DNA from: an uncultured Dehalococcoidia bacterium
GTDB taxonomy: Bacteria > Chloroflexota > Dehalococcoidia > SZUA-161
Reading direction: 5' to 3'
DNA: 50,068 bases
Assembly: GCA_964449845.1 (NCBI GenBank)
Contig: CAYVES010000004.1
Location: 1 to 50,068, forward strand
Both the position numbers and the translations under genes were made by a program. The notes beneath the pieces are model-generated. The model did no database searches. It was not told where the DNA came from and saw only the letters and a program-made list of their open reading frames with translations. Shown in pieces: positions 22,039-47,866 of the stretch. Every line of letters begins with the position of its first letter. The stretch's first letter is position 1.

Positions 22039-22220
22039 TCGTAGCGTCCTAGGGTGGACCAGGAAAACGGGTTTGTTGGGTGACTATGTCGGTTGGGGGC
22101 GCCAACGAAACTCCGTGTTTACCCAAGAAGGCGAAAACGTCGTTGGTGTCTATCGGTTTTTCATCGTAGCTAGAAGCTCCCGATCAGTATTTGGGGAGAA
22201 GATCGATTGGGGCGGGGATT

Positions 22221-25330: not shown

Positions 25331-25729
25331 ATGGCCGAAGCAGAGGTAATGGAAAAGAGTGGCGACCGGGTTGGCATCAAGTGTGGCTTCTGTCACGGAA
25401 CAGGGAAGGACCCTTTCGGGCTCCTGTCTACACTTGCTGCCTGTCAGGTATGCGGAGGCAGGGGCAGGGTCACCGTCATCGAACCGGTAGTCAAGTGGGC
25501 CTTTTGTCACGGGAGTGGGGTGTAACCCTCCCGTAGATTGACGTGCACTGTGTATAGTGGCAAGGGGGTTGTCCCCACCCCCGCTGAGGGTGAAAGGGAG
25601 GTCTGCCCCGAGTGTGGGGGCAGGGGCAAGACCCGTGGCTACTTGAATGGCCCCTGCCTCAAGTGCAAGGGCAGGGGCTTCATAGTTGCCAAGAAACTGA
25701 AAGGAGGCGATCAAATATGGCGATGGTAG
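25331..25729 (+). pseudogene. DnaJ-type zinc-finger (CxxCxGxG) protein interrupted by an in-frame TAA; possibly decaying paralog of 28161-28526
   Basis: CGFCHGTGK and CQVCGGRGR are intact. WAFCHGSG has W where C is expected. TAA at 25526 is in frame. CTVYSGKG has Y where C is expected. CPECGGRGK and CLKCKGRG are intact. Both halves are in the same frame, and the 3' end overlaps the gvpN start. Confidence 0.55.
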
Positions 25730-27942: not shown

Positions 27943-28155
27943 ATGCCAAGCGGGACTGAAGCAGATGCCCTGAAAAGGATCAGTGAGGCTGGAGGGAGGA
28001 TCGATGTGAGAGCACTGGCTCGCAAAATGGGTCGCAACACCTCCTACATGAACACCATCTGCCGTTCTCTGGGGAAAGCCGATTACATCGATTACCTCGC
28101 CTCCGGGATGTGCGTTATCACCGCTATGGGCGAAGAAGCGGTGAAGGGCAGTTAG
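27943..28155 (+). CDS. Small winged-helix-like protein
   Basis: 70 aa: LKRISEAGGRIDVRALARKMGRNTSYMNTICRSLGKADYIDYLASGMCVITAMGEEAV. This resembles a MarR/ArsR-like wHTH core. RBS GGAGGGAG. Confidence 0.5.
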   Translation: MPSGTEADALKRISEAGGRIDVRALARKMGRNTSYMNTICRSLGKADYIDYLASGMCVITAMGEEAVKGS

Positions 28156-28160
28156 GGAAA

Positions 28161-28526
28161 ATGGCAAAGCGAGTGGTTGAATGCGTCTATTGCAAGGGGA
28201 AAGGGAAACGCAGCTATCTTGAAAAAGGGGTCGGGGTTGCTCTTCGCGGAGAACCGACTTATGAGTTCGTGTGCCCGGTGTGTTCTGGCAGGCGAAAGGT
28301 AGAGGTGGAGGAGCCAGCGAGAACTTGCGGCTTCTGCGGGGGGACGGGGCTATCAAAGCAGGGCAGTCTGGCTACCTGCCCTGTGTGCAAGGGTAAGGGT
28401 ATGGTCACGGTAATAGAGCCGGTCAGTCAGTGTCCTGCTTGCCGCGGACGGGGAAGGAAGCCCGGGAGCCCCCTTTACTGTATTAGATGTAAAGGCACCG
28501 GTTTCATAACCACAGTCAGGGTATGA
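28161..28526 (+). CDS. DnaJ-type zinc-finger protein (about five CxxCxGxG-type units, one degenerate), no J domain
   Basis: 121 aa from the internal ATG. Units: CVYCKGKGK, CPVCSGRRK, CGFCGGTGL, CPVCKGKGM, CPACRGRGR and CIRCKGTGF. Confidence 0.8.
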   Translation: MAKRVVECVYCKGKGKRSYLEKGVGVALRGEPTYEFVCPVCSGRRKVEVEEPARTCGFCGGTGLSKQGSLATCPVCKGKGMVTVIEPVSQCPACRGRGRKPGSPLYCIRCKGTGFITTVRV

Positions 28527-28551: not shown

Positions 28552-29565
28552 GTGAGCAACTATATCTACGGCGTGATTCAAACCAAGAAGGGGAAGAACT
28601 TCGGCCCCATCGGGATCGGCGGTGGGGATGAAGTTTATACCATCCTCTACCTGGACCTGGCAGCGGTGGTAAGCGATTCATTACCCGCTGCGCTCACTAC
28701 TCTCCCCAAGGAGGAGGTAGTGCGCTACCTCTTTGCTCACCAAGCCGTCATTGAGAAGGTGATGAAAGAGCATACTATTATTCCCCTCAAGTTCGGGACC
28801 ACTGTCGGCAGCGCTGAAGAGGTGAAAGAGATTTTAGAGAAGGCCTATCCTAAGTTCAAAGATGCCCTCGAAGCTATGGCGGGCAAGGTGGAGTTCGATG
28901 TGGTTGTTACCTGGAATAAGGACTCTGTGTTCAAGGACATCTCGCAGGAGGAGGAAATCATAAGGTTCAAGCAAAGCCTCGGCCCCCAGCCCTCGGCAGA
29001 AGATAAGGTGAAGCTGGGGCGAATGGTCGAAGACTTTCTAGGCAAGAGGAAAGAGACGCTTGCCCCAGAGATAACCGCTGCCTTAGCCGAAGTCGCTGAG
29101 GATTTCTGCCCCCACGATACCCTGGACGCCACCATGATTATTAACACCGCATTTTTGATCCGAAAAGACAAGCAGGAGGCCTTTGACCAGAAGCTTGACG
29201 AGATAGACTGCAAATATGATGGCGGCTTGAATTTCAGGCGGGTGGGGCCCCTACCACCCTATAGCTTCAGCACCGTTGAGGTCAAGAAGGCTGAGTTTGG
29301 AGAGATTGGAAGGGCAAGAAAGATACTGGGCTTGAGCCAGGAGGCTACGCAGTCCCAGATTAAGGAGGCTTACTGGAATCTGTCCTCGGAGTATCATCCC
29401 GACAAGCACCCGGGTGATGTGGCAATCCGAAAGAGGTTTGAGGATGTTTCCTGGGCCTATGAGCTTCTCACTGAATACTGCGGAGGAGAGAGGTTCTCTT
29501 TTCGAGAAAAGGATGCCAGGGCCTTTGTTAAGGTAGACCTGGTCGGAATCGGAAGAAGAGGGTAG
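28552..29565 (+). CDS. GvpF/GvpL-family protein fused to a C-terminal J domain (HPD motif present)
   Basis: N-terminal NYIYGVIQTKKGKNFGPIGIGGGDEVYTILYLDLAAVVSD...IPLKFGT is GvpF/L. C-terminal ARKILGLSQEATQSQIKEAYWNLSSEYHPDKHPGDVAIRKRFEDVSWAYELL is a J domain. GTG start. Confidence 0.88.
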   Translation: MSNYIYGVIQTKKGKNFGPIGIGGGDEVYTILYLDLAAVVSDSLPAALTTLPKEEVVRYLFAHQAVIEKVMKEHTIIPLKFGTTVGSAEEVKEILEKAYPKFKDALEAMAGKVEFDVVVTWNKDSVFKDISQEEEIIRFKQSLGPQPSAEDKVKLGRMVEDFLGKRKETLAPEITAALAEVAEDFCPHDTLDATMIINTAFLIRKDKQEAFDQKLDEIDCKYDGGLNFRRVGPLPPYSFSTVEVKKAEFGEIGRARKILGLSQEATQSQIKEAYWNLSSEYHPDKHPGDVAIRKRFEDVSWAYELLTEYCGGERFSFREKDARAFVKVDLVGIGRRG

Positions 29566-29570
29566 CTGAA

Positions 29571-30323
29571 GTGGCTGAGGAAGGTAAATACCTCTACTGC
29601 ATTATCGCAAACAACGAAGGAAGAAACTTCGGTCCACTTGGCATCGGCGGGAGAGGTGATCCGGTTACCACCATCTCCTACAATGACCTCAGTGGGGTCA
29701 TCAGCGACGCCCCGATAAAGGAGTATGCCACCACCAGGGCGAATACCATCGCTCATGAGAAAGCTATCGAGAAAGTGATGAGCGAGGGGAATGCCGTCCT
29801 CCCGGTGAGATTCGGCACTGTGGCCGATAGCGCTCAGGAAGTGCGGGACATTCTGCGCAAGAGAGACCGGGAATTCAAAGACCTGCTCCGCGATATGGAC
29901 AACAAGGTCGAACTGGGGGTGAAGGCGCTCTGGCTTGATATGGACGCTATCTTTAACGAGATCATAGAGGAAAGTGGCGACATCAGAGTGTTGAGAAACA
30001 GGGCTGCCCGCAAGCCAACTCGAGATAGCATGATTCGGGTGGGGGAGCTGGTCAAGGAGGCCTTGGAGGAGAAGAAGGAAAGGGAGGCAGCCTCAATACT
30101 TCAGCCCCTGAACAAGATCGCCCCCGATTCCAAGGTCAATAAGCCCTTCGGCGATAGAATGTTCCTCAATGCCGCCTTCCTGGTTGACAAAGGCTGGGGA
30201 AAACAATTCGACAATGAAATCGAAACCCTGACGATGAAGTATGCCCAGAGGGCGAAGATCACCTATGTTGGGCCTGCCCCGCCCTTCAACTTCGTCAACA
30301 TAGTAATCCACTGGGAAAGATAA
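29571..30323 (+). CDS. gvpF: Gas vesicle protein GvpF/GvpL family
   Basis: 250 aa: KYLYCIIANNEGRNFGPLGIGGRGDPVTTISYNDLSGVISD...VLPVRFGTV...FNFVNI. GTG start, 5 nt after the previous stop. Confidence 0.88.
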   Translation: MAEEGKYLYCIIANNEGRNFGPLGIGGRGDPVTTISYNDLSGVISDAPIKEYATTRANTIAHEKAIEKVMSEGNAVLPVRFGTVADSAQEVRDILRKRDREFKDLLRDMDNKVELGVKALWLDMDAIFNEIIEESGDIRVLRNRAARKPTRDSMIRVGELVKEALEEKKEREAASILQPLNKIAPDSKVNKPFGDRMFLNAAFLVDKGWGKQFDNEIETLTMKYAQRAKITYVGPAPPFNFVNIVIHWER

Positions 30324-30324
30324 G

Positions 30325-30561
30325 ATGCCCATTCTAACAACCTACCTAATCTTCAAGGGTCTTCGAGGCATTGCCGGGAAGATTCGCGATATGGCTGAGG
30401 AGGAATACTACGGGGAGGACAGGATAAAGCAGCAGCTTCTGGAACTCCAGATGAGGTTGGAGATGGATGAGCTAACCGAGGAGGAGTATCTGAAAGCGGA
30501 AGCTGCCCTGATGGGAAGGTTGGAGGAAGGTCGCCAACGCGGCGTTCAAGGAGCAGTATGA
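30325..30561 (+). CDS. gvpG: Gas vesicle protein GvpG
   Basis: 78 aa: GIAGKIRDMAEEEYYGEDRIKQQLLELQMRLEMDELTEEEYLKAEAALMGRLEE, the characteristic GvpG helix pattern. Confidence 0.88.
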   Translation: MPILTTYLIFKGLRGIAGKIRDMAEEEYYGEDRIKQQLLELQMRLEMDELTEEEYLKAEAALMGRLEEGRQRGVQGAV

Positions 30562-32525
30562 TGGCCGCCTTTCTGGCCAACCCATACCTCAAGCTCATAA
30601 TCTTCGGCGGCAAGGGAGGGAGCGGCAAGACAACCTCGGCTGCGGCTGCTGCCCTCCATTTCCGTAAGCTCGACCCCGAAAAGAGGATACTGGTTATGTC
30701 CACCGACCCCGCCCACTCCCTCGGCGACAGCTTCGACATCGCTATCGGCAACAGGGTTACCCCCATAAAGGAGACCGTCTGGGGGCTGGAAGTAGACTCT
30801 AATGAGCTGTTTGAGGAATACAAAGCCAAGCACGGAGACGCGATGAAGAAGATAGCCGACCGGGGGACCTATTTTGACCAGGATGATATCGAGGACTTCT
30901 TCACCAAGACCCTCCCTGGTTTGGATGAGGTTATGGCTGTCATTCGCATCGCCGACCTGCTTAAAGCCGGGGAATATGACCTGATTATTCTGGATACCGC
31001 CCCCACCGGGCACACCCTGGTCCTCCTTTCCCTGCCTGAGGAGATGGAGAAATGGATTCATCTCATGGATATGCTCATGCAGAAACATCGCTATATGATG
31101 AGAAGGCTGGTCGGCAGATACAAAAGGGACGAGTGTGACGAGTTCATCGACAGCCAGCAAAAGGATATCAGCAGGGTGAGACAGCTCCTCAGCGATGCCA
31201 CAGCAAGCGAGTTTGTTCCGGTTACCATCCCAGAGCCGATGAGCATCGCCGAAACAGAAAGAGCCGTCAAGGCTTTGAAGGAGCACAACATTGCGGTCAA
31301 CAGCATCATCGTCAACCGGGTTATCGAGGAGCAGCGGGAGTGTTCCTTCTGCTCGGTGAGGTGGGCGGAGAAGGAAAAGTATGTGCGGGAGATTGAGCAG
31401 AAGTTCGCTCATTACAATCTGGTCAAGATGCCCCTCTTCCCCTACCAGATCCGGGGCGAGAGCTTGACCGAGTATGCCCAGGTACTCTTCGGGGAGAGAG
31501 AATATGCCCCTCCCCCCAGGGCGGAGGTCTTGCCCCAAGCCCCTCCCCTGCCCAAAGGGGGGTTCTCCGATATTCTGGAGAAGGAGCTTAGCTTCCTCAT
31601 CTTCGGGGGCAAGGGAGGGGTGGGCAAGACCTCAATTGCCGCCGCCAGCGCCCTCCATTTAGCCCGACATAAGCCGGATAGGAAGGTCCTCGCCTTCTCC
31701 ACCGACTCCGCCCATGCCCTCTCCGACAGCTTCGAGCAGCGTATTGGCAACCAAATCACCCCGATTTCGGGTATCGATAATCTCTACGCCCTGGAGATTG
31801 ATGGCACCCAGATGCTGGAGGACTTCAAGCAGGAGTATCGAGATGACATAGATGAAGCCTTTCAGAGGTTTCTCGGCACCCACATGGACATGAAGTTTGA
31901 CCGGGAGGTTCTTAAAGAGTTCTTGGCTGTCTCTCCCCCGGGCCTTGATGAGCTCATGTCTTTGCAAGAGATTACGGGTCTCATGAAGGAAGGAGACTAC
32001 AGCCTCTTTGTCCTCGACTCAGCAGCCTCGGGGCACCTGATTCGTTTTCTGGAACTCCCCCATCTGATGAGGGAGTGGCTGAAGAGCGTCTTCAGGCTGC
32101 TCATCAAGTATAGGGGGATGGTGAAGCTGAACAGGGCTACGGAGCGCCTTCTGAGCCTATCCCGGGATTTGAGAAAGATATTGGAGGTTCTCTCCGATCC
32201 CCGAGGAACGGAGTTTGTGATGATCACCATCCCTGAGGAGATGGGGGTGGCGGAGATGGAGGACCTGTCAGAATCTTTAGCCAACCTTAGAATCCCCTGC
32301 TCTCATGTAGTCATTAACATGATAATCCCTCCCACCGACTGTGGTTTCTGTGCTGCCAAGAGAAAAGAGCAGCAGGGCTATATCCAGGAAATCGAGGCAA
32401 AACTGCCTCATCACACCATCGTTCCCATACCTTTACTCCCCCATGATATCAGGGGGGTAGAGCACTTGAGCGAACTTGCCGAGATTATGTACGGGAAGGC
32501 GATGGTGAGCGCTAAGAGATCTTAG
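30558..32525 (+). CDS. Tandem (pseudo-dimeric) ArsA/Get3/TRC40-family ATPase
   Basis: 655 aa. Two P-loops (GGKGGSGKTT, GGKGGVGKTS), two STD(P/S)AH(S/A)L motifs and two switch motifs (LDTAPTGHTL, LDSAASGHLI). Each half carries a CxxC followed by a Get3-like helix (CSFCSVRWAEKEKYVREIE, CGFCAAKRKEQQGYIQEIE). The first half has a Met-rich segment, MEKWIHLMDMLMQKHRYMMRRL. ATGA overlap with the gvpG stop. Confidence 0.88.
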   Translation: MMAAFLANPYLKLIIFGGKGGSGKTTSAAAAALHFRKLDPEKRILVMSTDPAHSLGDSFDIAIGNRVTPIKETVWGLEVDSNELFEEYKAKHGDAMKKIADRGTYFDQDDIEDFFTKTLPGLDEVMAVIRIADLLKAGEYDLIILDTAPTGHTLVLLSLPEEMEKWIHLMDMLMQKHRYMMRRLVGRYKRDECDEFIDSQQKDISRVRQLLSDATASEFVPVTIPEPMSIAETERAVKALKEHNIAVNSIIVNRVIEEQRECSFCSVRWAEKEKYVREIEQKFAHYNLVKMPLFPYQIRGESLTEYAQVLFGEREYAPPPRAEVLPQAPPLPKGGFSDILEKELSFLIFGGKGGVGKTSIAAASALHLARHKPDRKVLAFSTDSAHALSDSFEQRIGNQITPISGIDNLYALEIDGTQMLEDFKQEYRDDIDEAFQRFLGTHMDMKFDREVLKEFLAVSPPGLDELMSLQEITGLMKEGDYSLFVLDSAASGHLIRFLELPHLMREWLKSVFRLLIKYRGMVKLNRATERLLSLSRDLRKILEVLSDPRGTEFVMITIPEEMGVAEMEDLSESLANLRIPCSHVVINMIIPPTDCGFCAAKRKEQQGYIQEIEAKLPHHTIVPIPLLPHDIRGVEHLSELAEIMYGKAMVSAKRS

Positions 32526-32551: not shown

Positions 32552-32926
32552 ATGGCGCTAACGGCGGAAAAGGACTCAGGCGGAACCCTGGCTGATGTCA
32601 TCGACCGGGTTCTGGACAAAGGGCTGGTAATTAACGCCGACATCACCGTGTCTCTGGCTGGGGTGGAGCTATTGGGCATTAAGATAAGGGCAGCCCTGGC
32701 TTCTTTTGAGACGGCAGCCAAGTATGGCCTGGAGTTTCCCTCGGGGACAAATTATGAGACCGCTGCCTGGCAGGAGGCTACAGTTGCCAAAGAGGAATGT
32801 CCCCAGTGTGAGAAGAGGGTGCACCTGGATGAACTCCTCAACGAGGGGTGCCCGTGGTGCGGCTGGGTCAGCGCCAAGGCCAAGGCAATCCGCGCCAAGG
32901 CAACTCCAGAGATGGAAGCCCGCTAA
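32552..32926 (+). CDS. gvpJ: GvpA/GvpJ-family protein with C-terminal zinc ribbon
   Basis: TLADVIDRVLDKGLVINADITVSLAGVELLGIKIRAALASFETAAKYG is the GvpA/J core. CPQCEKRVHLDELLNEGCPWCGW follows. Confidence 0.85.
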   Translation: MALTAEKDSGGTLADVIDRVLDKGLVINADITVSLAGVELLGIKIRAALASFETAAKYGLEFPSGTNYETAAWQEATVAKEECPQCEKRVHLDELLNEGCPWCGWVSAKAKAIRAKATPEMEAR

Positions 32927-32938
32927 GTTAGGAGCAGG

Positions 32939-33280
32939 ATGCTTTTTGAACCGACAATCCTGAAGGAAATCCATAAAGAGGCCAAGCGAGAACAAAAGAG
33001 GTCGATGGAGAAAGAAAAGACCTCTGCCTACTGGGTGAGGTGCCCCGCCTGTGGAAGGAAGGTGGCAAAAAGGCAGATTCTGACCCAAGGCTGCTGGGTT
33101 TGCGGTTGGAAGGGAACTCAGAAGGAACTCGAGCTTGCCAGATCAAAGAGAGCCAACGGGCAGAAGACCAAGACTGCCGCTGAGACGAGTTATAAGACCA
33201 GGTGTCCGGGGTGTGGTAGGCCGGTGATTACACAAGAGTTGAGAGAGAAAGGGTGCTATATCTGCGGCTGGAAGGGTTAA
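32939..33280 (+). CDS. Double zinc-ribbon protein (two copies of the CPxCG...GCxxCGW module)
   Basis: 113 aa. CPACGRKVAKRQILTQGCWVCGWKG and CPGCGRPVITQELREKGCYICGWKG. Confidence 0.7.
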   Translation: MLFEPTILKEIHKEAKREQKRSMEKEKTSAYWVRCPACGRKVAKRQILTQGCWVCGWKGTQKELELARSKRANGQKTKTAAETSYKTRCPGCGRPVITQELREKGCYICGWKG

Positions 33281-33284
33281 TAGG

Positions 33285-34061
33285 ATGATCAGAAGCTCAT
33301 GGCCCAAGGGCCACAACTCTCATGCCGAAGAAGCAGTTCGGAAGCTGACCCCTTTCATGCCGCAAAACCTCAGACTCGATATACTCGCCTCCTTGTGGGA
33401 AGAATACGGGGACGAGGGGCAACTGGCCAGGGAAGTCGGCTGTAAGCCCGCCCTGATGGACAAATGGCTGAGGGCAGGGGAACCACCGAGCGACAAATAC
33501 ACGCCGCAAATCCTTTTCCTCGCCCTGCAACGCTCTTCCAGGGTAAGGGAAATACTGCGGGCGGAGGTACTGGAGCAAATCGAGGACATCTTCGCTGAGA
33601 TCGATGTTTTTCATGAAGAGAAAACCGACGCGGACCTGGGTAGGGTTCTGGATATTGTGGATGAGAAGAGCCGGCAGATACTGTGGTATCTATGGTGGGG
33701 CAGGCATGCCGAGATTGGCGAACTGGTTGAGCTAACGAAGGCAGACTCGGATATGGACATCCTGTCTCGAATAAGGGACGTCATAAACCCCGCTGCTCGA
33801 CTTGCTCTGGGTAGGGAGATAGTGAAGTTCGAAAGCTCCAGGATCGACCCGGTAACCGGGGAGAGGGTCCTCTCTAGCTGGTGGCTGGAGGAGGGCTCAC
33901 TATTTGGGAGAAGGAGAGCGCCCCTGGTGGATGTCTTTGAGGAGGATGGGCATGTAGCCATAATTGCCCAGCTACCTGCCTCACTGGAGTTAGCCAGTGA
34001 GGCGCAGGTAGTGAGCAAGGATGGTGTCTTGAGGATCAGGGTGGAGAAGATCAAGGGTTAA
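33285..34061 (+). CDS. Protein with C-terminal alpha-crystallin (Hsp20)-like segment; possible HTH near the N-terminus
   Basis: 258 aa. C-terminal PLVDVFEEDGHVAIIAQLPASLELASEAQVVSKDGVLRIRVEKI parallels the ACD start of 34139 and 40805. N-terminal GQLAREVGCKPALMDKWLRAGEPP is HTH-like. Confidence 0.6.
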   Translation: MIRSSWPKGHNSHAEEAVRKLTPFMPQNLRLDILASLWEEYGDEGQLAREVGCKPALMDKWLRAGEPPSDKYTPQILFLALQRSSRVREILRAEVLEQIEDIFAEIDVFHEEKTDADLGRVLDIVDEKSRQILWYLWWGRHAEIGELVELTKADSDMDILSRIRDVINPAARLALGREIVKFESSRIDPVTGERVLSSWWLEEGSLFGRRRAPLVDVFEEDGHVAIIAQLPASLELASEAQVVSKDGVLRIRVEKIKG

Positions 34062-34138: not shown

Positions 34139-34813
34139 ATGGCTGAGAAGAAGGAACGGGAAGACAAGATAAGGGAGCTTGAGAAAAAGATCGAGAGGCT
34201 GGAGGAACAACTGGAAAGGCGCAGGCGAGGTGGGGCGGCCGGCAGCGTGCTCCGTGGACTGGGCGATGTTATACCCGGGCTGGGCAGGATGCTCGAGGGG
34301 CTGGAGGATTCGGAGGCTTTCCAGGAAAGGCTGGACGCCATCAACAAGGAGGTTGATAAGAGGCTCAGGGAAACACCGCTTGAGAGGGTGGAAGGAGGAG
34401 GTAGTGATATCGGGATTGCCAAAGGAAGAATACCTAGAAGGGGCTCTATCCCTAATGTGGCGAAAGGTTTCTCAATAAGGAGCTTGGCCCCGGAGAAACC
34501 CGCCTTTGAAGTGAAGGGAGAGAAGCCCCGGCCCAAAAGGCAGAGAGCGGCAGAACCCCGGCCTAGCATAGAGAGAGAGGTCCTGGTGGACGTCTTCGAA
34601 GAGGATAATCACCTGAAGATAATCGCCGAGATCCCGGGAGTGCAAGAAGGGGACATATTGGTCGAGTCTAAGGGAAATGCCGTGCTTATATCCGTTGATA
34701 CCCCTCAGCGCAAGTATCACAAAGAGGTGGCATTGCCCTGCCCGGTTAAGGGGGGACCCAAGACATCTTACAAAAACGGCATCCTGGAAATCGAACTGGA
34801 GAAAGAGGGCTGA
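34139..34813 (+). CDS. Small heat-shock (alpha-crystallin domain) protein with N-terminal coiled coil
   Basis: 224 aa. VLVDVFEEDNHLKIIAEIPGVQEGDILVESKGNAVLISVDTPQRKYHKEVALPCPVKGGPKTSYKNGILEIELEKE is a typical Hsp20 ACD. Confidence 0.8.
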   Translation: MAEKKEREDKIRELEKKIERLEEQLERRRRGGAAGSVLRGLGDVIPGLGRMLEGLEDSEAFQERLDAINKEVDKRLRETPLERVEGGGSDIGIAKGRIPRRGSIPNVAKGFSIRSLAPEKPAFEVKGEKPRPKRQRAAEPRPSIEREVLVDVFEEDNHLKIIAEIPGVQEGDILVESKGNAVLISVDTPQRKYHKEVALPCPVKGGPKTSYKNGILEIELEKEG

Positions 34814-34815
34814 GC

Positions 34816-35142
34816 ATGCCACTTGATATCGATGAGGGCAATCTGAAGCATGGTGTGTTGGGACTGGTCATTGCGCTGGTGGAGATAATCAGGGATACCC
34901 TCAGGATCGAAGCCTTCCGGAGAATGGACGGCGGAAGCCTAGCAGATGAGGAATGTGAGCGGCTGGGAGAAGCACTGCTCGACCTGGATATGGCTATCGA
35001 GGAGATAAAAGAGGAGCAGGGCATCACCGAGGCAGTTCAGCAGGTGAGGGATGGCCTGGATGACATCGCGAGGGAAGTGGTTGACAGAATGGCAAACCCG
35101 GTGAGATGGGAGGAGGAAGCCGAAAGGCAAGGGGTGTGCTAG
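34816..35142 (+). CDS. gvpK: Gas vesicle protein GvpK
   Basis: 108 aa: GVLGLVIALVEIIRDTLRIEAFRRMDGGSLADEECERLGEALLDLDMAIEEI, the characteristic GvpK block. Confidence 0.9.
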   Translation: MPLDIDEGNLKHGVLGLVIALVEIIRDTLRIEAFRRMDGGSLADEECERLGEALLDLDMAIEEIKEEQGITEAVQQVRDGLDDIAREVVDRMANPVRWEEEAERQGVC

Positions 35143-36219
35143 ATGGAAAAGGATCTGAGAGCAAGAAAAGCAATAGAGCAGCTGGTGAGGCAAGAGGTAC
35201 AGAGAATAGCCTCTGAAACCAAGGACCTGTTGAGGGAGATGGTGAGAGCCACCCTACTGCCCGAGCTCAGGGCAGCTATTCAAGATTCTATCTCCGAGGT
35301 GGTGCAGGAGGCGTTGAGTGAGGAGATACTACCAGTCCGTGAAGCCGATATATTTGAGGAAGTTTCAGGGGTTGAAGCTGCTTTCCCGGAAGAGGAAGTA
35401 GGGGAGATGCCGGATGCCGAGGGAGAGCCGGCCTTGGAGGAGGCCAGGGGCACCAAAAATGGGAGCGGCAGGTATGCATATTGCGTCGCCGATTCCGGGG
35501 AAATGGTCAACCTGGGACAGATAGGAATTGAAAACAGTGAAGTCTACACTATTCCCTACAACGGCTTGTGCGCTGTCGTCCATAACTGCTCCACAGAGCC
35601 CTATAAGTCAGAGGATGAGGAAGTGGTCAAGGGCTGGGTGCAGATCCACCAGAAGGTCCTCGATGTGGCTATGGAAAGGTTTGCCACCGTGCTTCCCCTC
35701 GGCTTCGACACGATAATAAAAAGCGAAGATGAAGTCGAGCCCGATCAGGTGGTGAAGGACTGGCTTAAGGATGATTTCGAGAATCTCAGGGAGAAGATGG
35801 ACCGCGTCAGGGGAAATCAGGAGTTCGGCATCCAGGTATTCTATGATCCCAAGGTGATGGGGGAAGTGATTGCCCGGGAGAGCGAGGAGATTCAGAAACT
35901 GCAAGTGGAGATGGCGTCTCAGAAGCCGGGGATGGCCTATATGTATAAGCAGAAGGTGGAGAAGGCGGTGAAAGAGGAAATGGAGAGGAGGGCAGAACAG
36001 AGCTTTAAGGATCTTTACCAGGCAATCAGAAATCAGGTTGATGACATCAAGGTGGAGAAGGTCAAAAGAGACAGGGATAAGACGATGCTTATGAATCTAT
36101 CCTGCCTGGTATTAAAGGAGAAGGTGGAGGACCTGGGCAATGTACTGGAGGGGATTGACAACATGGATGGCTTCTCAGTCCGCTTCACCGGGCCCTGGGC
36201 TTCTCATAGCTTTGTCTAG
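35143..36219 (+). CDS. gvpL: Gas vesicle protein GvpL/GvpF family with an acidic N-terminal extension
   Basis: 358 aa. GRYAYCVADSGEMVNLGQIGIENSEVYTIPYNGLCAVVHN...VLPLGFDTII...FTGPWA. The ATG directly abuts the gvpK stop. Confidence 0.85.
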   Translation: MEKDLRARKAIEQLVRQEVQRIASETKDLLREMVRATLLPELRAAIQDSISEVVQEALSEEILPVREADIFEEVSGVEAAFPEEEVGEMPDAEGEPALEEARGTKNGSGRYAYCVADSGEMVNLGQIGIENSEVYTIPYNGLCAVVHNCSTEPYKSEDEEVVKGWVQIHQKVLDVAMERFATVLPLGFDTIIKSEDEVEPDQVVKDWLKDDFENLREKMDRVRGNQEFGIQVFYDPKVMGEVIARESEEIQKLQVEMASQKPGMAYMYKQKVEKAVKEEMERRAEQSFKDLYQAIRNQVDDIKVEKVKRDRDKTMLMNLSCLVLKEKVEDLGNVLEGIDNMDGFSVRFTGPWASHSFV

Positions 36220-36220: not shown

Positions 36221-36392
36221 GTGACAAGGGTTCAGGGCCTCGGAATGGCACATTCCAGGTGTCATTGCGAGGAGTGATAGCGACGCGGCACTCTAGGGCG
36301 TGGTAGGGAGGGATAGAACGATGAGATTGCTTCGCTTCGCTCGCAATGACCAGGGGGTGTGGGGCTCAGAATGACAAAGGAGAAGGGGCAAG
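36221..36392. repeat. REP/MITE-like GC-rich palindromic element, copy A
   Basis: ...ggcacattccaggtgtCATTGCGAGgagtgatagcgacgcggca...gggagggatagaacgatgagattgcttcgcttcgCTCGCAATGaccag... Inverted CATTGCGAG/CTCGCAATG arms are present. About 170 nt align to 36813-36995. Confidence 0.8.
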
Positions 36393-36393: not shown

Positions 36394-36741
36394 ATGAGAG
36401 AGTTCCTGCGAGAGGGAGAACAGACTATCATGTCCACTCCGGGAGCCATTGATATCGGCACCCTTGACGCCCTGTGGAGAATGGGGAATCTCCACCTCAC
36501 CGATAAACGGGTGTTTTTTGAGCGCCAGGGGAAAATCCAGTTTGCCTCCTTCCTCGAGGATGTGGTGGATGTCAGGCTGGAGATGAGGAAATGGATACTG
36601 CAGCATATCAGGCAGCTTTGCATATCCTACCGAACCACACCCGATGGCCGTGTCCGGGTGGCATATGTCGCCGTCAGGTCGCCTGTGGGCTGGCAGAAGG
36701 CAATCAAGGATAGGATGACTTTCGCCTTGATAGGGACCTAG
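36394..36741 (+). CDS. Stand-alone PH/GRAM-like domain protein
   Basis: 115 aa from the ATG at 36394; upstream codons of the track ORF lie in the REP element. MGNLHLTDKRVFFERQGKIQFASFLEDVVDV resembles the two PH/GRAM-like modules of 37020-38132. Confidence 0.6.
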   Translation: MREFLREGEQTIMSTPGAIDIGTLDALWRMGNLHLTDKRVFFERQGKIQFASFLEDVVDVRLEMRKWILQHIRQLCISYRTTPDGRVRVAYVAVRSPVGWQKAIKDRMTFALIGT

Positions 36742-36812
36742 CACCCTTATCACCCTGAGCGAAGCGAAGGGTCCAGGGCTTTTGGAGATTCTTCGGTCGC
36801 TTCGCTCCCTCA

Positions 36813-36995
36813 GAATGACAAGGGTTGAGGGCCTTGGAATGACAGAGGCATTCCAGGTGCCATTGCGAGGAGCGATAGCGACGTGGCAATCCCGGGGGTG
36901 GCAGGGAGGGATAGAACGAAGAGATTGCTTCGCTCGCAATGACGAGAGGTTGAGGGTCTCAGGATGACAGAAGGCGAAGGGCTCAGAGTGACAGC
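36813..36995. repeat. REP/MITE-like GC-rich palindromic element, copy B
   Basis: ...ggcattccaggtgcCATTGCGAGgagcgatagcgacgtggcaatcc...gggagggatagaacgaagagattgcttcgCTCGCAATGacgag... Extra related arms (gagcgaagcgaaggg / cttcggtcgcttcgctccctcagaatgac) lie at 36755-36815. Confidence 0.8.
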
Positions 36996-37019
36996 AAGGT
37001 GAACCATTGGGGATGAAAA

Positions 37020-38132
37020 GTGGGAATGCAACCTACGGCGGCAACGGAATGTGGTGTAACCGATCTCTTAGAGAGGATTCTAGACAAGGGGCTGGTAATC
37101 CATGCCGACCTCATAGTCTCCCTGGCAGGGGTTCCTCTTGTCGGGGTTACTCTAAAGGCAGCCATAGCCGGGATGGAGACAATGCTGAAGTATGGCATGT
37201 TGACCGATTGGGATGAAAAGACCCGCGACTGGGCTCGAACGGAGCGGGAGGAATCTCGAAAAGCGAGCGGGGTCTTGAAAGACGGTGAAGAGGTTCTGAT
37301 CAGGATGTTCGGCTCCCACTGGTACAGCCGGGGCATCTACCGCAACTGGAGGCCGGGGCATCTCTACGTCACCGATAGGAGGCTTCTACTGTGGAGACCC
37401 TATCCCGGCGAGGTATTAACGGAGGTTCACTACGAGCTAATAAAAGGAATGGCTGTGGAGAGAAGGATAAATGTCGCCAAGAAGGAAACGGATTACCTTT
37501 ATATATTGCTCAAGGATGGCGAGGTGGTTCAACTCCATCCCACCGATGCTTCGGTGGTAAGAGAGGCTATTGAAAACAGGATGCAAACGCTGGGACTGCA
37601 ACTGGAGAGTTACCCAGCTATCCCGCCCGTTGATGAGGGGGCAGCCAGGTTCTTGACCCCTGGCGAGCAAGTTACCCACTGCGGCAGGATGTGGCACCTC
37701 GTGACCCAGCCCTCCCCGGGCGGAATCACCAGCGAGAAGTGGAAGCCGGGACACCTGTATCTAACCAACGAGAGGCTGTACTGGTATCACGACTTCGACG
37801 GCAAGGTGGACTGGGAAGCCCCCCGTGACAGCCTGGTTCATGCCACTGCTCAGTTAAAGAATCTCGGGGGTATGCTGAAGGAGAAGCAGGTCCTCAGTGT
37901 GCTGCACAAGACCGGGTCAGGTAACAGGGTAGCATGCTTCTCTGGCGTGCCGGTGGAGATGAAGGACTGGGAGGATGCCCTAGTAGATGTCATCAGGCAG
38001 CGCAGCGAACCCATGCCTGAGGACTGGGAACAGTGCCCCCAGTGCGGGGAGAAAGCGCCCCGAGAGAGGCTGGTAAAAGATGGCTGCCCGGTGTGCGGCT
38101 GGGTAAGCCCCAGGCTGACGCGAAGAGTCTAG
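37020..38132 (+). CDS. GvpA/GvpJ-family domain fused to two PH/GRAM-like domains and a C-terminal zinc ribbon
   Basis: 370 aa. VTDLLERILDKGLVIHADLIVSLAGVPLVGVTLKAAIAGMETMLKYGM is the GvpA-family core. WRPGHLYVTDRRLLLW and WKPGHLYLTNERLYWY mark two PH/GRAM-like modules. CPQCGEKAPRERLVKDGCPVCGW closes it. The start may be the ATG at 37026. Confidence 0.83.
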   Translation: MGMQPTAATECGVTDLLERILDKGLVIHADLIVSLAGVPLVGVTLKAAIAGMETMLKYGMLTDWDEKTRDWARTEREESRKASGVLKDGEEVLIRMFGSHWYSRGIYRNWRPGHLYVTDRRLLLWRPYPGEVLTEVHYELIKGMAVERRINVAKKETDYLYILLKDGEVVQLHPTDASVVREAIENRMQTLGLQLESYPAIPPVDEGAARFLTPGEQVTHCGRMWHLVTQPSPGGITSEKWKPGHLYLTNERLYWYHDFDGKVDWEAPRDSLVHATAQLKNLGGMLKEKQVLSVLHKTGSGNRVACFSGVPVEMKDWEDALVDVIRQRSEPMPEDWEQCPQCGEKAPRERLVKDGCPVCGWVSPRLTRRV

Positions 38133-38142: not shown

Positions 38143-38421
38143 GTGAGCAAAATGTCTCTGACGACGGTTCAGGTAGTAGACCGGGCTAAGAAGCAGCTAA
38201 GCGAGCTCATAGAGAGGAAGCCATCAGGTGTGACTGCGGTTCACAAGGATGATGGGGGGTGGCATGTCTCGCTGGAGATGCTGGAGAAGAAGTCTATCCC
38301 CGATGGCATGGATTTGCTTGCCGAGTATGAGGTCGTGCTTGATGATGACGGGAATATACTGAAGTTTGACCGGGGTGACCTGCGCACCCGCAGCGAGGCG
38401 ACAAAACATGAAGAGGAATAG
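38143..38421 (+). CDS. gvpO: Gas vesicle protein GvpO
   Basis: 92 aa: VVDRAKKQLSELIERKPSGVTAVHKDDGGWHVSLEMLEKKSIPDGMDLLAEYEVVLDDDGNILKFDRGDLRTR matches the GvpO pattern (W.V.vE..E...iP...D.la.YEv.lD..G.l..f.R). RBS AAAGGAGG. Confidence 0.8.
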   Translation: MSKMSLTTVQVVDRAKKQLSELIERKPSGVTAVHKDDGGWHVSLEMLEKKSIPDGMDLLAEYEVVLDDDGNILKFDRGDLRTRSEATKHEEE

Positions 38422-38487: not shown

Positions 38488-38727
38488 TTGACAGAGATGG
38501 CAGAAGAGAAGACGACAGCAGTGACGGGTCCGTTTCACTGCCCTATGTGTCTAGCCACCACCTCGGGGAGGCATGCCTTTTGCCCTGAGTGTGGCGAGCC
38601 CCTGGATATGCAGTGTCCCAACTGCGGACTTACCTGGCGATTCTATATCAAGCATACCTTTTGCCCTTCCTGCGGACAAAGGGTTCCGGCAAAAGCTGGA
38701 CTGACCACAGCTAAAGGCTGGGGCTAG
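38488..38727 (+). CDS. Small double zinc-ribbon protein
   Basis: 79 aa. CPMC...CPEC...CPNC...CPSC gives four CxxC pairs. The start is TTG at 38488 or ATG at 38497. Confidence 0.58.
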   Translation: MTEMAEEKTTAVTGPFHCPMCLATTSGRHAFCPECGEPLDMQCPNCGLTWRFYIKHTFCPSCGQRVPAKAGLTTAKGWG

Positions 38728-38757: not shown

Positions 38758-40503
38758 ATGGCTAGAGTCATAGGGATTGATTTGGGTACTACCAACTCGG
38801 TAGCTGCCTTTATAGAGAATCGCAAGCCAAAGGTCATCCCCAATGCCGAGGGTGGTCGGCTGACCCCTTCTGTAGTGGCGTTGACCGCAGATGGGAGGCG
38901 GCTGGTGGGGCAACTGGCAAAGAGGCAGGCCGTAGCCAACCCCGAGAAAACCGTTGTCTCCATGAAGAGGCGAATGGGCTCTGACTTCAGGGTGAGGCTT
39001 GGCCGAAAGGAGTACACGCCTCAAGAGGTCTCAAGCCTTATCTTGGGTAAGATCAAAGCCGATGTCGAAAGCTACCTGGTGGAGAGGGTGGAAAAGGCGG
39101 TGATCACCGTTCCTGCCTATTTCAATGACTCTCAGCGTCAAGCCACCAAAGATGCTGGGACCATCGCTGGGTTGGATGTACTCAGGATTATTAACGAACC
39201 CACGGCCGCTGCCTTGGCCTATGGGTTGGATAAGCAGGACGCCCATAATATCCTGGTCTGGGACCTTGGCGGCGGCACGTTCGATGTCTCCATCCTGGAG
39301 CTGGGCAGGGGAATGTTTGAGGTCAAGGCGGTAAGTGGCAACACCTGGCTGGGGGGGGATGACTGGGACCAGCGTATCGTGGATTATCTGGCTGGCGAGT
39401 TCCAGAGACAGCACGGCATCGACTTGCGAGAAGACAGGATAGCCCTGCAGCGGCTGAGGGAGGCCGTGGAGAAAGCCAAGATCGAGCTTTCAAACAGCCA
39501 GGTTGCCTCCATCAAACTGACGTTTATCCTCAGTAACAACCATGATGCCGAACATCTGGATATGACACTGACCAGGGAAAGGTTCGAGGAGCTAACAGAG
39601 GATTTGCTTCAGAAGATGATTGGGCCCACCAAGCAAGCTTTGGCCGATGCCAAACTCGAGCCTGAAGATATCGATAGGGTAGTTCTGGTAGGCGGAGCTA
39701 CCAGGATGACGGCGGTGCAGCAGCTATGCCGAGCGCTCTTGCGTAAGGAGCCTTACAAGGACATCGATCCCGATGAGGTGGTGGCTATGGGCGCCGCCAT
39801 TCAAGCCGGGATGCTAAGCGGTGAACTGGAAAAGGTAACATTGCTCGATGTTACCCCCCTCTCTCTGGGCATTGAGACCAGGGGCGGGATTTTTGCCAGG
39901 ATTATTGAAAGGAATGCCAAAATTCCTACCTCCACAAGCCAGGTATTTTCCACGGCTTTCGACAACCAGCCTGAGGTGGATATTCATGTGCTGCAGGGAG
40001 AGAGGGAGATGGCTTGTTACAACATGAGCCTGGGCAGATTTCAGCTCACCGATATCCCCCTTGCTCCCCGAGGAGTGCCCCGCGTCGAGGTCGTCTTTAG
40101 TATCGACGTTAACGGCATTCTCCAGGTGTCTGCCACAGACCTATATACCGAAAATGAAGCCAGATTAAGGATTCAGTCCTCCAGGCTATCACCTGAGGAC
40201 ATCGGACGGATGATCGAAGAAGCTAAGGTCTATGCTGAGGAGGACAAGAGGCGGCGCGAAGAGGTAGAGATAGGTATTAGAGCCGACAACCTCATCTATG
40301 CTGCTGAAAAGATGGTGGAGCAGACAGGGGATAGATTGGATGACACCCAGCTTGCGGAAACAGAGGCAAAGGTATTAGCGGTGAAGTCCGCTCTAGCCAG
40401 TGGAGATACTGAGGAGATCAGGTTAAGAACTGAAGACCTACAAGAAGTGGTCCGGGAGTTATACACGGAGAAGGAGGAGCTTACCAGTGCAAGGGCGACT
40501 TGA
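38758..40503 (+). CDS. Hsp70 (DnaK-family) chaperone, compact 581-aa form
   Basis: [72 protein letters not shown] and a full beta-sandwich SBD ([13 protein letters not shown]...[19 protein letters not shown]). The helical lid is short. Confidence 0.95.
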
Positions 40504-40804: not shown

Positions 40805-41500
40805 ATGGAGAATAGACGTATCAGGGGATTGCGATTAGAGCTTGGTCTGTCTCAGGAGAGGTTTGCTCGGCTCGTTGGCGTCTCACTGCAAACGGTGCGA
40901 CGGTGGGAGGAAGGCTTAACCAGACCTCTGCCTGTCTTGAGTCTCAAGCTGGAGGAGCTACAAAGAAATTCCGGAGGTGTTGGAATGGGTGAGGAGGAAA
41001 AGAAGAAAGTGGAAGGAACTGTGGATATTGGTTTCGGTGGCCTGTTCAAGGGACTCGGCAGCCTGTTTGACCTCGTCTCCAGGATGGCTGAGGAGGGGAA
41101 AGATGAATATACCCGCACCGGGGAGATTACGGGCCTGGGCGACAAGGCTAAGGGAGTATATGGCTTTAGCGTAAAGATGGGGCTGGGAGGAAAGCCGACT
41201 ATAGAACAGTTCGGCAATATCAAGGCAACCGAGAGGGGGCCGGTGGTGGCGGAGGTCAGGGAGCCTATAGTTGATGTCTTCGATGAGGGGGAGAGATTGG
41301 TAGTGATCGCTGAACTTCCTGGTGTGGACGAGGACGACATCCACCTTGAGGTGAAAGATGACATTATCGATCTGGCTGCGGAAGCAAAGGACAGGAAGTA
41401 CAGTAAGGAGATTCTACTTCCCTCGGCAGTGGATGCCGATTCTATGCAATCTACCTACAAGAACGGGATTCTGGAGATAACGTTCAAGAAGAAGCAATAA
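40805..41500 (+). CDS. XRE-type HTH domain fused to an alpha-crystallin (Hsp20) domain
   Basis: N-terminal IRGLRLELGLSQERFARLVGVSLQTVRRWEEG is an HTH_3 pattern. C-terminal PIVDVFDEGERLVVIAELPGVDEDDIHLEVKDDIIDLAAEAKDRKYSKEILLPSAVDADSMQSTYKNGILEITFKK is an ACD. Confidence 0.83.
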   Translation: MENRRIRGLRLELGLSQERFARLVGVSLQTVRRWEEGLTRPLPVLSLKLEELQRNSGGVGMGEEEKKKVEGTVDIGFGGLFKGLGSLFDLVSRMAEEGKDEYTRTGEITGLGDKAKGVYGFSVKMGLGGKPTIEQFGNIKATERGPVVAEVREPIVDVFDEGERLVVIAELPGVDEDDIHLEVKDDIIDLAAEAKDRKYSKEILLPSAVDADSMQSTYKNGILEITFKKKQ

Positions 41501-41682: not shown

Positions 41683-43827
41683 ATGGCGAAGGTGGAAACT
41701 AACGCCGTAACCCTTAGGGTTTCGGAGGCGCTGGCTAAGGACGTGGGTCGAGGAATAGCCAGGATCGACCCTAAAGATATGGTGGAGACAGGCGCTGAGG
41801 TTGGAGATATCGTTCAGATTGTGGGTAAGAGACCCACTGTTGCCAGACTTATGCCCACCTACATGGAGGACCGGGGCAAGGACAGCATTCAAATCGATGG
41901 CATTACGCGAGAGAACGCCCAGATTGGACTGGGTGAGAAGGTACAAATTCAAAAGGTTGAACACAAGACCGCCAATGCCATAGTCCTCGCCCCAATAGCC
42001 CCATCATCTGCCTTCGCTCGCGAAAAGGATACCGGCTACATCGGGAGGCTGCTTGAGGGAATGGCTGCCACCTCTGGAGACAAGGTAAGGGTCACCCTTT
42101 TTGGCACTCGCTATCAGGAATTCTCTGTGGTGGATACCAACCCCAAGGGAGTCGTTGTTGTCCATCCCACCACCCGGGTAAAGATGAAAGGTGAAAGGGT
42201 TACCGAGAGAGAAGGGGTTGGAGTTACCTACGAGGACATCGGTGGATTGCACAAGGAGATTCAGAAGATAAGAGAGATGATCGAGCTTCCCCTGAAATAC
42301 CCTGAGGTGTTTGACAGGCTGGGGATTGAAGCCCCCAAGGGGGTATTGCTCCATGGCCCTCCGGGATGCGGCAAGACTCTGATCGCCCGAGCGGTAGCCA
42401 ATGAGACCGACGCTGGCTTTTTCCATGTAAGTGGTCCCGAGGTCATCCATAAGTTTTATGGAGAGAGTGAAGCACACCTGCGGGCTTTGTTTGAGAAGGC
42501 AGGTGAACAGGCGCCGGCCATAATCTTTTTGGATGAGATTGACGCTATAGCCTCCAAAAGGGAGGAAATCAGGGGCGACCAGCAGGTGGAAAGAAGGGTT
42601 GTTGCCCAGCTTCTGGCGTTGATGGATGGCCTGAGATCAAGGGGGCAGGTGATCGTCATCGGGGCAACCAATATACCCAATGTGCTTGACCCGGCACTGC
42701 GGAGACCGGGCAGGTTTGATCGGGAGATTTCAATAAGCATCCCCGACAAGAAGGGAAGGCTGGAGATACTCCACATCCATACTAGAGGAATGCCTTTGGC
42801 TTCGGATGTCGACCTGGAAAAGCTGGCTGAAATCACCCATGGCTTTGTTGGTGCCGACCTGGAGGCGCTCTCTAGAGAGGCGGCGATGATAACCCTGAGG
42901 AAGATCATGCCCAAGATCGAGTTTGAGACCGACTATATTCCCTATGAACTGCTCCTGGAACTGGAAGTTACCATGGATGACTTCATGGAGGCATTAAAGG
43001 AGGTGGAGCCTTCAGCCATCAGGGAGGTTTTCACTGAGATTCCCGATGTAAAGTGGAGCGATGTCGGTGGTCTTGAGGAGGCGAAACGAGTGCTCAGGGA
43101 GACCATCGAGTGGCCCCTCAGCTATCCCGAGGTATTCGGCAAAGCCAATACCAGTCCTCCCAAGGGGATACTGCTTACCGGAGCCCCAGGGACGGGTAAG
43201 ACGCTGCTGGCTAAGGCTGTGGCTAACGAGAGTGGAGTGAACTTCATCTCGGTAAAGGGCCCGGCCTTGCTCACAAAATGGGTGGGGGAGTCGGAGAAAG
43301 GGATCAGGGAGGTGTTCAAGAAAGCCAAACAGGCCAGCCCCTGCATCATGTTCTTCGATGAGATAGACGCCATCGCCCCCACCAGAGGGGTTAGTGCTGA
43401 TTCCCACGTCACTGAGCGAGTGATCAGCCAGTTCCTCACTGAACTCGATGGAATAGAGGAGCTTAAGGGGGTGATGGTTCTGGCTGCTACCAACAGGCCG
43501 GATATTATCGACCCAGCTCTGCTTAGAGCTGGCAGATTCGACTTCCAGTTGGAGCTGCCAATGCCTGATGAGGAGACAAGGCTGGAGATATTCAAGGTTC
43601 ATACCAGGGGCAAACCCCTGGCTGACGATGTTGACCTCAAGTCCCTCGCCAAGGCAACTCAAGGCGTGGCAGGCTCTGATATAGAGGCTATCTCAAGGAG
43701 AGCTTCGATGCTGGCGATAAGGGAATTCATAAACCGGGAGGAAATGGACCTCGACAAACTCAAGATCGAGGCCCGGCATTTCAGGGAGGCACTTGAGACA
43801 ACAAGGATGGCCAAAGACCAGCGATGA
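41683..43827 (+). CDS. Cdc48/VCP-like double-ring AAA+ ATPase (N domain + D1 + D2)
   Basis: 714 aa. N-terminal [23 protein letters not shown]...GDIVQIVG is a Cdc48-N pattern. Two Walker A motifs ([22 protein letters not shown]), two Walker B motifs ([20 protein letters not shown]) and two second-region-of-homology blocks ([26 protein letters not shown]). Confidence 0.93.
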
Positions 43828-47863: not shown

Positions 47864-47866
47864 GGT

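Follow-up and report, generated by a model that had tools for sequence, protein, structure and literature searches.

A GvpM-type gas-vesicle shell paralog extended by two PH-like modules and a zinc ribbon in a Dehalococcoidia gene cluster

Haloarchaeal GvpM, whose bacterial counterpart is GvpS and whose relatives include GvpJ, is a protein of ~84 amino acids (aa) in which a Gas_vesicle core is followed by a short, dispensable tail. In Halobacterium, the C-terminal 25 aa of GvpM contact GvpF, GvpH and GvpL, and the protein binds GvpH, GvpJ and GvpL (PMC8716928). GvpJ and GvpS are urea-resistant shell components, enriched in bicones, whose C-terminal tags are accessible (PMC10327013), and proteins of the GvpJ, GvpM and GvpS types are located in bicones and not in the cylinder (PMC10903477). 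Here we describe a gene of an uncultured Dehalococcoidia bacterium, found in a 50,068-nucleotide stretch of contig CAYVES010000004.1 (hereafter ‘the window’), the product of which has both the Gas_vesicle core of haloarchaeal GvpM and its position after gvpK and gvpL, but differs in that ~300 residues, predicted to be folded, follow the core: two PH-like modules and a C4 zinc ribbon. We refer to it as the fusion.

Several described systems invite comparison. Anabaena flos-aquae possesses a GvpJ with a repeat-containing C-terminus and a GvpK–GvpA-like fusion, precedents for long additions that are thought to have nucleation or cone roles (PMC10903477), although the added part there is made of 21-aa repeats or is a GvpK domain, whereas the present fusion adds globular PH domains and a zinc ribbon. 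C-terminal FLAG and SpyTag fusions of GvpJ and GvpS, engineered on bicones and vesicles, were tolerated, shell-bound and surface-accessible (PMC10327013); the idea is the same as in the natural fusion, but those tags were short, synthetic and carried by an engineered gene cluster, rather than native folded domains of 300 aa. GvpU and GvpT of Bacillus megaterium are surface-bound clustering factors and, as the fusion would be, accessories on the vesicle exterior; unlike the fusion, GvpU is a protein in its own right, which attaches to the tail of GvpB, acts via a disordered region and is reported to be restricted to Bacillota. The presence of ArsA and Hsp20 genes in gvp clusters was noted already in 2010 (PMC2963123). 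A literature search, within the searchable library, recovered no paper in which PH, GRAM or pleckstrin domains are connected with gas vesicles, or which describes a zinc ribbon on GvpJ or GvpM. What is new is the architecture, a widespread variant of a known protein type and not a new kind of system.

Domain anatomy of the fusion

Our analysis shows the fusion to be a GvpM-type shell family member with a C-terminal extension of ~300 residues, comprising two PH-like modules and a C4 zinc ribbon, that is conserved across anaerobic bacteria and archaea. The open reading frames (ORFs) and motifs that an earlier, sequence-only reading of the window had quoted for 37020–38132 and 36394–36741 were all found there, with exact translation. 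The motif LLERILDKGL...KYG corresponds to fusion residues 16–59, while residues 110–125 (WRPGHLYVTDRRLLLW) fall in the region of PH module 1, residues 241–256 (WKPGHLYLTNERLYWY) in that of PH module 2, and residues 339–361 (CPQCGEKAPRERLVKDGCPVCGW) form the zinc ribbon. The true start is likely to be the ATG at 37026 rather than the GTG at 37020, since the gene-caller product (P0001) has 368 aa and M3 and P5 are almost invariant in the family alignment. Homolog lengths concentrate at ~360–375 aa, and a size of 368–370 aa lies outside the small-GvpM range (~80–100 aa).

The N-terminus had been read as a GvpA/J core. Its place in the GvpA family was borne out by Pfam, in which Gas_vesicle (PF00741) matched residues 14–50 of the fusion (E 3e-14, 53.3 bits, cutoff 25) and all 62 family members (62/62), and by matches of the family profile to solved GvpA structures over residues 5–56 (8GBS, 5.4e-11; 7R1C, 6.1e-9). 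The domain is not, however, a generic A/J core. Against the NCBIfam models for GvpA, GvpJ and GvpM the fusion scored 38.6, 48.1 and 83.7 bits respectively, compared with 58.8, 99.2 and 52.1 bits for the 124-aa shell paralog in the window and 120.7, 40.8 and 31.9 bits for the 68-aa paralog. The entire 67-position halo_gas_GvpM profile was covered, with a score below the curated cut-off of 109 bits for this model, which was made for haloarchaea. A RAAIA-like motif, a point of agreement with haloarchaeal GvpM and its relatives, appears in the fusion as KAAIA. By these sequence comparisons the N-domain is of GvpM type, because its best NCBIfam match is GvpM and the gene order mirrors haloarchaeal gvpJ-K-L-M. 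AlphaFold2 (AF2) assigned it helices at residues 13–23 and 45–57 and strands at 30–35 and 38–44, at a predicted local distance difference test score (pLDDT) below 50.

Beyond this domain, AF2, given an alignment of 62 sequences, predicts two modules of seven strands and a C-terminal helix each, with block-mean pLDDT mostly 80–93 (~72–93 in module 1, the helix of which spans residues 177–190). This seven-stranded antiparallel beta-sandwich with a C-terminal helix cap is predicted alike in both modules and in a stand-alone PH protein encoded upstream. Foldseek comparison of the fusion model with the PDB gave 121 matches at E≤0.001, and the top-ranked of those listed were almost all PH, PTB or double-PH structures: among them were BBS5, a tandem PH-GRAM protein (5e-9), FARP1/2 (DH-PH-PH), Spt16M, Pob3 and Rtt106 (double PH, FACT/Rtt106 type), Dok7/IRS-1 (PH-PTB), archaeal CheF and single PH domains (4tyz, template-modelling (TM) score 0.72), all with a probability of 1.00, and Vps36 GLUE was likewise a top match. 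BBS5, which has a tandem arrangement like that of the fusion, was also recovered by the family sequence profile alone (E 7e-4, spanning both modules). The proposal that the middle region has a PH/GRAM-like fold is thereby upheld.

BBS5, Vps36/EAP45 GLUE, GRAM and archaeal CheF have in common with the fused modules both the fold and a G-x-L-Y-[LV]-T-x-x-R-[LV] hairpin motif, but not the functional context, and the fusion of the window stays below the Pfam gathering thresholds: PH reached 17.4 bits (residues 227–326), Vps36 17.0, bPH_3 16.2 and GRAM 14.1, where the cutoffs of the GRAM, Vps36 and PH models are 23.6–25.1 bits. Among its 62 homologs, matches were obtained to Vps36 GLUE (49), GRAM (47), bPH_3 (21), Voldacs (16), PH_TFIIH (8), CheF-arch (8) and PH (7), with best E-values of 5.5e-8 for GRAM and 1.8e-7 for Vps36. 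The bPH_2 family, which had also been proposed, matched neither the fusion at E≤1 nor any of the 62 members. The two modules are paralogous by profile comparison (hhalign 98.8%, E 1e-16), and the W, G, Y, T and R residues of their core motif are conserved at 93–100%. They are near-neutral in bulk charge, with a median isoelectric point (pI) of 6.3–6.5 and a median net charge of −1 (range −7 to +9 across the family), and the linkers of the family are short and conserved, with no disordered region of the GvpU kind.

The zinc ribbon that had been called at the C-terminus is present, with CxxC-x13-CxxC spacing and with C339, C342, C356, C359 and W361 invariant in 62 sequences. Pfam DZR reached 16.9 bits (under its cutoff of 27.3), and the sequence is consistent with a C4 zinc ribbon forming a putative metal site. 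The module occurs four times across three proteins of the cluster: once in the fusion, once in the GvpJ-type paralog, where it is joined to the shell domain directly, without PH modules, and twice in a 113-aa protein.

The gene at 36394–36741 had been taken for a single-module paralog of the fused domains, and this too held. Comparison by hhalign gave 98.5% (E 2e-15) against module 2 and 96.7% against module 1; AF2 predicted PH topology (pLDDT 86, predicted TM score (pTM) 0.81); and Foldseek returned Vps36 GLUE (2cay, TMq 0.66–0.70) as the top match, followed by GRK2 PH, BBS5, EAP45 GLUE and myotubularin (MTMR) GRAM-PH. Pfam and NCBIfam gave nothing at E≤1 for this protein, so that its fold is established by profile–profile comparison and AF2. 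In contrast to the fused modules it is strongly basic (pI ~9.9, net charge ~+6). It has 34 homologs at 62–90% identity, usually of 115 aa and all unannotated. In the two nearest Dehalococcoidia genomes, orthologs with 76% identity lie immediately 5′ of the fusion, and homologs of 30–39% identity were found within gvp loci of Actinomycetota, Atribacteria, Bacteroidales, Desulfosporosinus and others.

Distribution and architecture variants

A full-length protein search with the fusion gave 614 matches, the best 120 of which were all 329–396 aa long and covered 87–100% of the query at 44–85% identity; the ORF is therefore unsplit in other assemblies, as its reading as a single gene had implied. 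Full-length homologs occur in Chloroflexota, Bacillota (Firmicutes), Actinomycetota, Atribacterota, Desulfobacterota, Nitrospirota and Coprothermobacterota, as well as in ANME-1 (Methanophagales), Methanotrichaceae (Methanothrix) and Bathyarchaeia. When the C-terminal 305 residues alone were used in an exhaustive HMMER search, 162 representative clusters at 50% identity were recovered; among the matches listed, most began ~50–90 residues from the start of the target, after a GvpA-like N-domain, and the rest were mostly short and apparently fragmentary. Databases name family members ‘gas vesicle protein’ or ‘GvpJ’, some with precomputed GRAM or Vps36 Pfam matches. Mthe_0071 is labelled gvpM in the literature (PMC10470525) and is a candidate counterpart of the Methanothrix homolog P0087, whose cluster members are listed only by accessions of metagenome-assembled genomes.

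At least 523 GTDB species genomes (one genome per species) encode a relative. The best 80 loci from these, chosen for carrying the fusion and in many cases incomplete, come from over 15 bacterial and archaeal phyla, and cultured Desulfosporosinus and Streptomyces are among their sources. Their proteins were labelled with hidden Markov models built in-house from the family alignment, with which PH1 and PH2 labels can swap. The full architecture GVPM-PH1-PH2-ZNR was found 38 times in the 80 loci, beside GVPM-PH1-PH2 (14), GVPM-PH1 (18), GVPM-PH1-ZNR (10), ZNR-ZNR (14) and, commonest of all, GVPM-ZNR (67). It is clear that the architecture represents a widespread family with modular variants and not a singular fusion.

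Outside GvpM, PH modules occurred in the 80 loci in two contexts only: stand-alone, in 14 loci, and N-terminal to Hsp20-like proteins resembling p258, a 258-aa protein of the window, in at least 24. PH copies of the small-ORF type were all encoded on the strand of the fusion gene, and 15/38 adjoined it. Homologs of p258 in other phyla measure 300–440 aa; their C-terminus is Hsp20/ArsA_HSP20-like, and their N-terminus is formed by a single PH module of the small-ORF type or by two such modules (for example, L013 2393–3718, L018 11085–12374 and L015 4686–5960).

GvpL/F was present in 77/80 related loci. The order GvpJ(ZnR)...GvpK-GvpL-[PH]-fusion recurs in Dehalococcoidia, Desulfosporosinus, Bacteroidales, Nitrospirota and Bathyarchaeia, with the M type following K and L in the window and in loci L001, L012 (Desulfosporosinus sp. 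SRJS8), L018, L026 and L058; the archaeal loci L004 and L006 have the order J-fusion-...-K-L instead. Cultured Streptomyces sp. BK79 (L067 9857–12561) encodes GvpJ-ZnR, GvpM-PH-PH, GvpK and GvpL/F in that order. Its GvpM-PH-PH protein has a degenerate second PH module and no zinc ribbon, and the strain offers a genetically tractable carrier of the family.

Candidate roles of the C-terminal extension

In the model that we prefer, and to which we give an even chance on the sequence evidence, the fusion would sit in the shell as a nucleation subunit and carry its own docking platform, to which accessory proteins and chaperones would be recruited. We are highly confident of the identity and topology that this model assumes; the docking role of the PH-PH-zinc-ribbon region is put forward tentatively, at somewhat less than an even chance. 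The N-domain would be incorporated while the shell forms, probably at its conical ends or in the nucleus, as published for GvpJ, GvpM and GvpS, and the extension would face the cytoplasm. This orientation, at cones or nucleus, is expected of a C-terminal extension on GvpM because of the behaviour of tagged GvpJ and GvpS (PMC10327013) and the exclusion of these proteins from the cylinder (PMC10903477), and surface display is plausible by analogy, since those C-terminal tags were shell-bound, urea-resistant and accessible (PMC10327013). The extension would take the place of the short GvpM tail that in haloarchaea contacts GvpF, GvpH and GvpL, and thus may occupy a partner-contact site, given that the C-terminal 25 residues of Halobacterium GvpM contact these three proteins (PMC8716928).

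Two other proteins, the stand-alone PH protein and the Hsp20-like chaperone that bears PH, may pair with the PH modules of the fusion or have a ligand in common with them; by Rosetta-stone logic, the fusion of the PH module to the p258 family elsewhere suggests that the two work together. Similarly, the zinc ribbon carried by GvpM, by GvpJ and by the ZnR-ZnR protein links the three, and may connect them with one common partner. Protein ligands appear more probable than lipids for the fused PH modules because basic character is not conserved, and their near-neutral median pI suits proteins better than anionic lipids as ligands. A defined J/M nucleus would then assemble, to which the chaperones ArsA, Hsp70/J-domain-GvpF/L, Hsp20 and Cdc48 would be recruited.

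Several points weigh against this model. With the GvpA-like N-domain at pLDDT below 50 and a whole-model pTM of 0.47, the AF2 model does not define the geometry between domains. PH2 and the zinc ribbon are each dispensable, since variants exist that lack one or both. The p258 protein of the window itself has no PH module and no Pfam match, and only a weak NCBIfam Hsp20 match. Moreover, loci selected for the fusion give no negative control for its association with chaperone genes, and co-occurrence counts from them are lower bounds, and PH–PH pairing is no general property of PH domains.

A bolder version would make the PH and zinc-ribbon modules the assembly code of a chaperone-driven class of anaerobe gas-vesicle clusters, in which GvpM-PH-PH-ZnR and GvpJ-ZnR would form an oligomeric cap, possibly a PH ring like the rings of some bacterial PH domains, templating the cone apex and docking the PH-Hsp20, ArsA, Hsp70/J-GvpF/L and Cdc48 proteins that feed GvpA. 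We consider this rather unlikely as it stands; if true, it would be a nucleation mechanism absent from the studied haloarchaeal, cyanobacterial, Bacillus and Serratia systems.

Of the alternatives to a docking platform, the one that survives best, though still unlikely, is that the extension merely keeps the hydrophobic GvpM core soluble before insertion, as a holdase, and recruits no partner later. Haloarchaeal A, J and M proteins do aggregate non-specifically and require partners (PMC8716928), the cluster is rich in chaperones, and the tandem-PH folds of histone chaperones (FACT, Rtt106) are among the top Foldseek matches. Such a role nevertheless leaves unexplained the same zinc ribbon on GvpJ and on the ZnR-ZnR protein and the same PH type on the Hsp20-like protein, and the strong conservation of the core motif (W, G, Y, T and R) suggests a specific ligand.

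We regard it as improbable that the extension is a membrane tether, with GRAM/PH-like domains that would bind membrane lipids and so hold the vesicles, or the site at which they nucleate, at the cytoplasmic membrane. The families closest to the modules (GRAM, Vps36 GLUE, BBS5) include lipid-binding PH domains, and the basic charge of the stand-alone paralog would suit such a function, but the fused modules show no conserved basic character, making lipid binding doubtful, and PH modules of this type are found otherwise only on a soluble Hsp20-like protein of the cluster. Most carrier lineages are not known to make phosphoinositides.

A similarly low probability attaches to clustering between vesicles, whereby PH-PH-ZnR regions displayed on neighbouring vesicles would bundle them, by binding to one another or to the stand-alone PH protein, as a functional analog of B. 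megaterium GvpU. Surface display of the C-terminus is plausible, paralogous PH modules acting in trans could bridge particles, and phyla other than Bacillota, to which GvpU-type factors are reported to be restricted (PMC10903477), would need factors of their own. Proteins of the GvpJ/M/S type are, however, minor and reported at cones rather than the cylinder, offering few contacts for honeycomb packing; the short, conserved linkers contain nothing like the disordered region of GvpU; and the link to an Hsp20-like protein favours assembly over packing.

Finally, because a stand-alone PH gene adjoins, it is conceivable that the long ORF is an artefact, in which misassembly or a frameshift merged a short gvpM with a PH gene downstream of it. 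This can be rejected as having a negligible probability: length and domain order agree among the 120 best independent homologs, which come from many assemblies and phyla, the linkers are conserved and each architecture variant is recurrent.

Whether or not the fusion acts as a docking platform in nucleation, its architecture bears on gas-vesicle nucleation and on where GvpJ, GvpM and GvpS, minor but essential proteins of the shell, are positioned. Some 300 folded residues (~33 kDa) on the exterior would be a natural marker that should show by cryo-electron tomography or immunogold labelling, making GvpM location and copy number directly testable, and the PH and zinc-ribbon modules provide defined handles for mapping the nucleation complex. 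The fusion would also be a natural case of large domains displayed on a shell paralog, which is relevant to the engineering of gas vesicles for acoustic reporting and for display. The family also marks a widespread, unstudied type of anaerobe cluster (Dehalococcoidia, ANME-1, Methanothrix, Atribacterota, sulfate reducers, Bathyarchaeia) that couples shell proteins with ArsA, Hsp70/J-domain, Hsp20 and Cdc48 chaperones.

The surrounding cluster and the flanking repeats

On its + strand the window carries an extensive gas-vesicle cluster that encodes, besides the fusion, GvpN, GvpF/L, GvpG, GvpK and GvpO (Table 1). A six-frame search of the 50 kb found three Gas_vesicle-family genes only, one each of the A, J and M types. 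Chaperone genes are unusually numerous in the cluster, encoding a DnaJ-type zinc-finger protein, a J-domain GvpF/L, ArsA, Hsp20-like proteins, Hsp70 and Cdc48, and chaperone genes recur in at least ~37–42 of the 80 related loci. The combination of a J-domain GvpF/L with a cluster-encoded Hsp70 suggests that Hsp70 may be recruited directly to the GvpF/L assembly factor.

Table 1. Features of the gas-vesicle cluster, the fusion and its flanking repeats (window coordinates).
Feature	Position	Strand	Remarks
GvpA, major shell protein	23235–23441	+	68 aa; phmmer; NCBIfam GvpA 120.7 bits (cutoff 100)
GvpN-like AAA_5 ATPase	25612–26637	+	
DnaJ-type CXXCXGXG zinc-finger protein	28110–28526	+	
GvpF/L with C-terminal J domain	28552–29565	+	
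GvpF/L	29571–30323	+	
GvpG	30325–30561	+	
Two-domain ArsA	30558–32525	+	
GvpJ-type shell paralog	32552–32926	+	124 aa; Gas_vesicle 2.7e-17; NCBIfam best GvpJ, 99.2 bits; zinc ribbon at residues 83–103
Double zinc-ribbon protein (ZNR-ZNR)	32939–33280	+	113 aa; two copies of the cluster ribbon, nothing else recognisable
p258	33285–34061	+	258 aa; homologs elsewhere PH + Hsp20-like
Hsp20-like protein	34139–34813	+	
GvpK	34816–35142	+	Pfam GvpK 9.8e-17
GvpL/F family	35143–36219	+	Pfam GvpL_GvpF 2.9e-61; directly upstream, K-L-M order
Repeat copy 1	36222–36389		~170 nucleotides, hairpin-forming; GvpL/small-PH spacer
Stand-alone basic PH-fold protein	36394–36741	+	115 aa; paralog of the fused modules
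Repeat copy 2	36816–36982		Same ~170-nucleotide element; small-PH/fusion spacer
GvpM-type shell paralog + PH-PH-zinc ribbon (fusion)	37020–38132	+	370 aa from GTG 37020
GvpA-family core, GvpM type	37026–37226	+	Residues 3–69; KAAIA motif; conserved YG...DWDE..R tail
PH-like module 1	37293–37589	+	Residues 92–190; core W-R-P-G-H-L-Y-V-T-D-R-R
PH-like module 2	37671–38000	+	Residues 218–327; core W-K-P-G-H-L-Y-L-T-N-x-R
Putative C4 zinc ribbon	38034–38102	+	Residues 339–361; C-P-x-C-x13-C-x2-C-G-W
GvpO	38143–38421	+	
Double zinc ribbon	38488–38727	+	
Hsp70	38758–40503	+	
HTH-Hsp20	40805–41500	+	
Cdc48	41683–43827	+	

Just downstream of gvpA lie three partly duplicated ORFs (23676–24293, 24318–24551 and 24576–25244), two of which begin MSRASDVRS and two of which end near-identically (...GRQDEVG(R/K)MLDELWGVD(E/R)EVA(S/I)QWHKVMSSIRT). 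None of the three has a Pfam family, and together they may represent a family specific to the lineage, with a surface or regulatory role. An OmpR-type response regulator (22191–22952) is encoded immediately upstream of gvpA, and a PAS histidine kinase and response regulator pair (46433–48568) downstream of the cluster; both may regulate vesicle formation. The opposite strand holds, upstream of the cluster (17250–19820), the gene of a secreted or anchored protein of 856 aa with duplicated halves, a Pro/Thr-rich linker and then a C-terminal hydrophobic anchor.

The sequence-only reading had described the small PH gene as flanked by REP-like elements. A hairpin-forming repeat does lie on either side of it, in two direct copies that are 79–90% identical by segment (83% over 171 columns) and fold as a long imperfect hairpin (free energy −58 kcal/mol, z −2.6), but the window holds these two copies only, and none was found in the 80 related loci, including the orthologous spacers of L001 and L002, so that the REP-like designation is borne out only in part. 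By ORF coordinates, the spacers around the small PH gene measure 174 and 284 nucleotides here versus ~5–70 nucleotides in the two closest genomes, which lack the repeat; the ~170-nucleotide element is inserted into both spacers. An Rfam scan of the entire window at gathering thresholds gave no match, so the repeats are not a curated RNA family. Between 36100 and 38500, a promoter scan gave no promoter-like site, and a terminator scan gave one weak site, inside a coding region and fewer than in shuffled sequences, which is uninformative.

Beyond the window, the central ~90-nucleotide palindrome of the repeat has 73–76% matches in nine unrelated metagenome contigs. A 17-mer from its core is present in at least 120 metagenome contigs, which by our estimate is near chance expectation for such a collection. 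On one metagenome contig (Ga0207055_1035; L115 3919–4903) the 17-mer core occurs nine times, with eight listed positions mostly 121 nucleotides apart, suggesting a tandem array of a related element.

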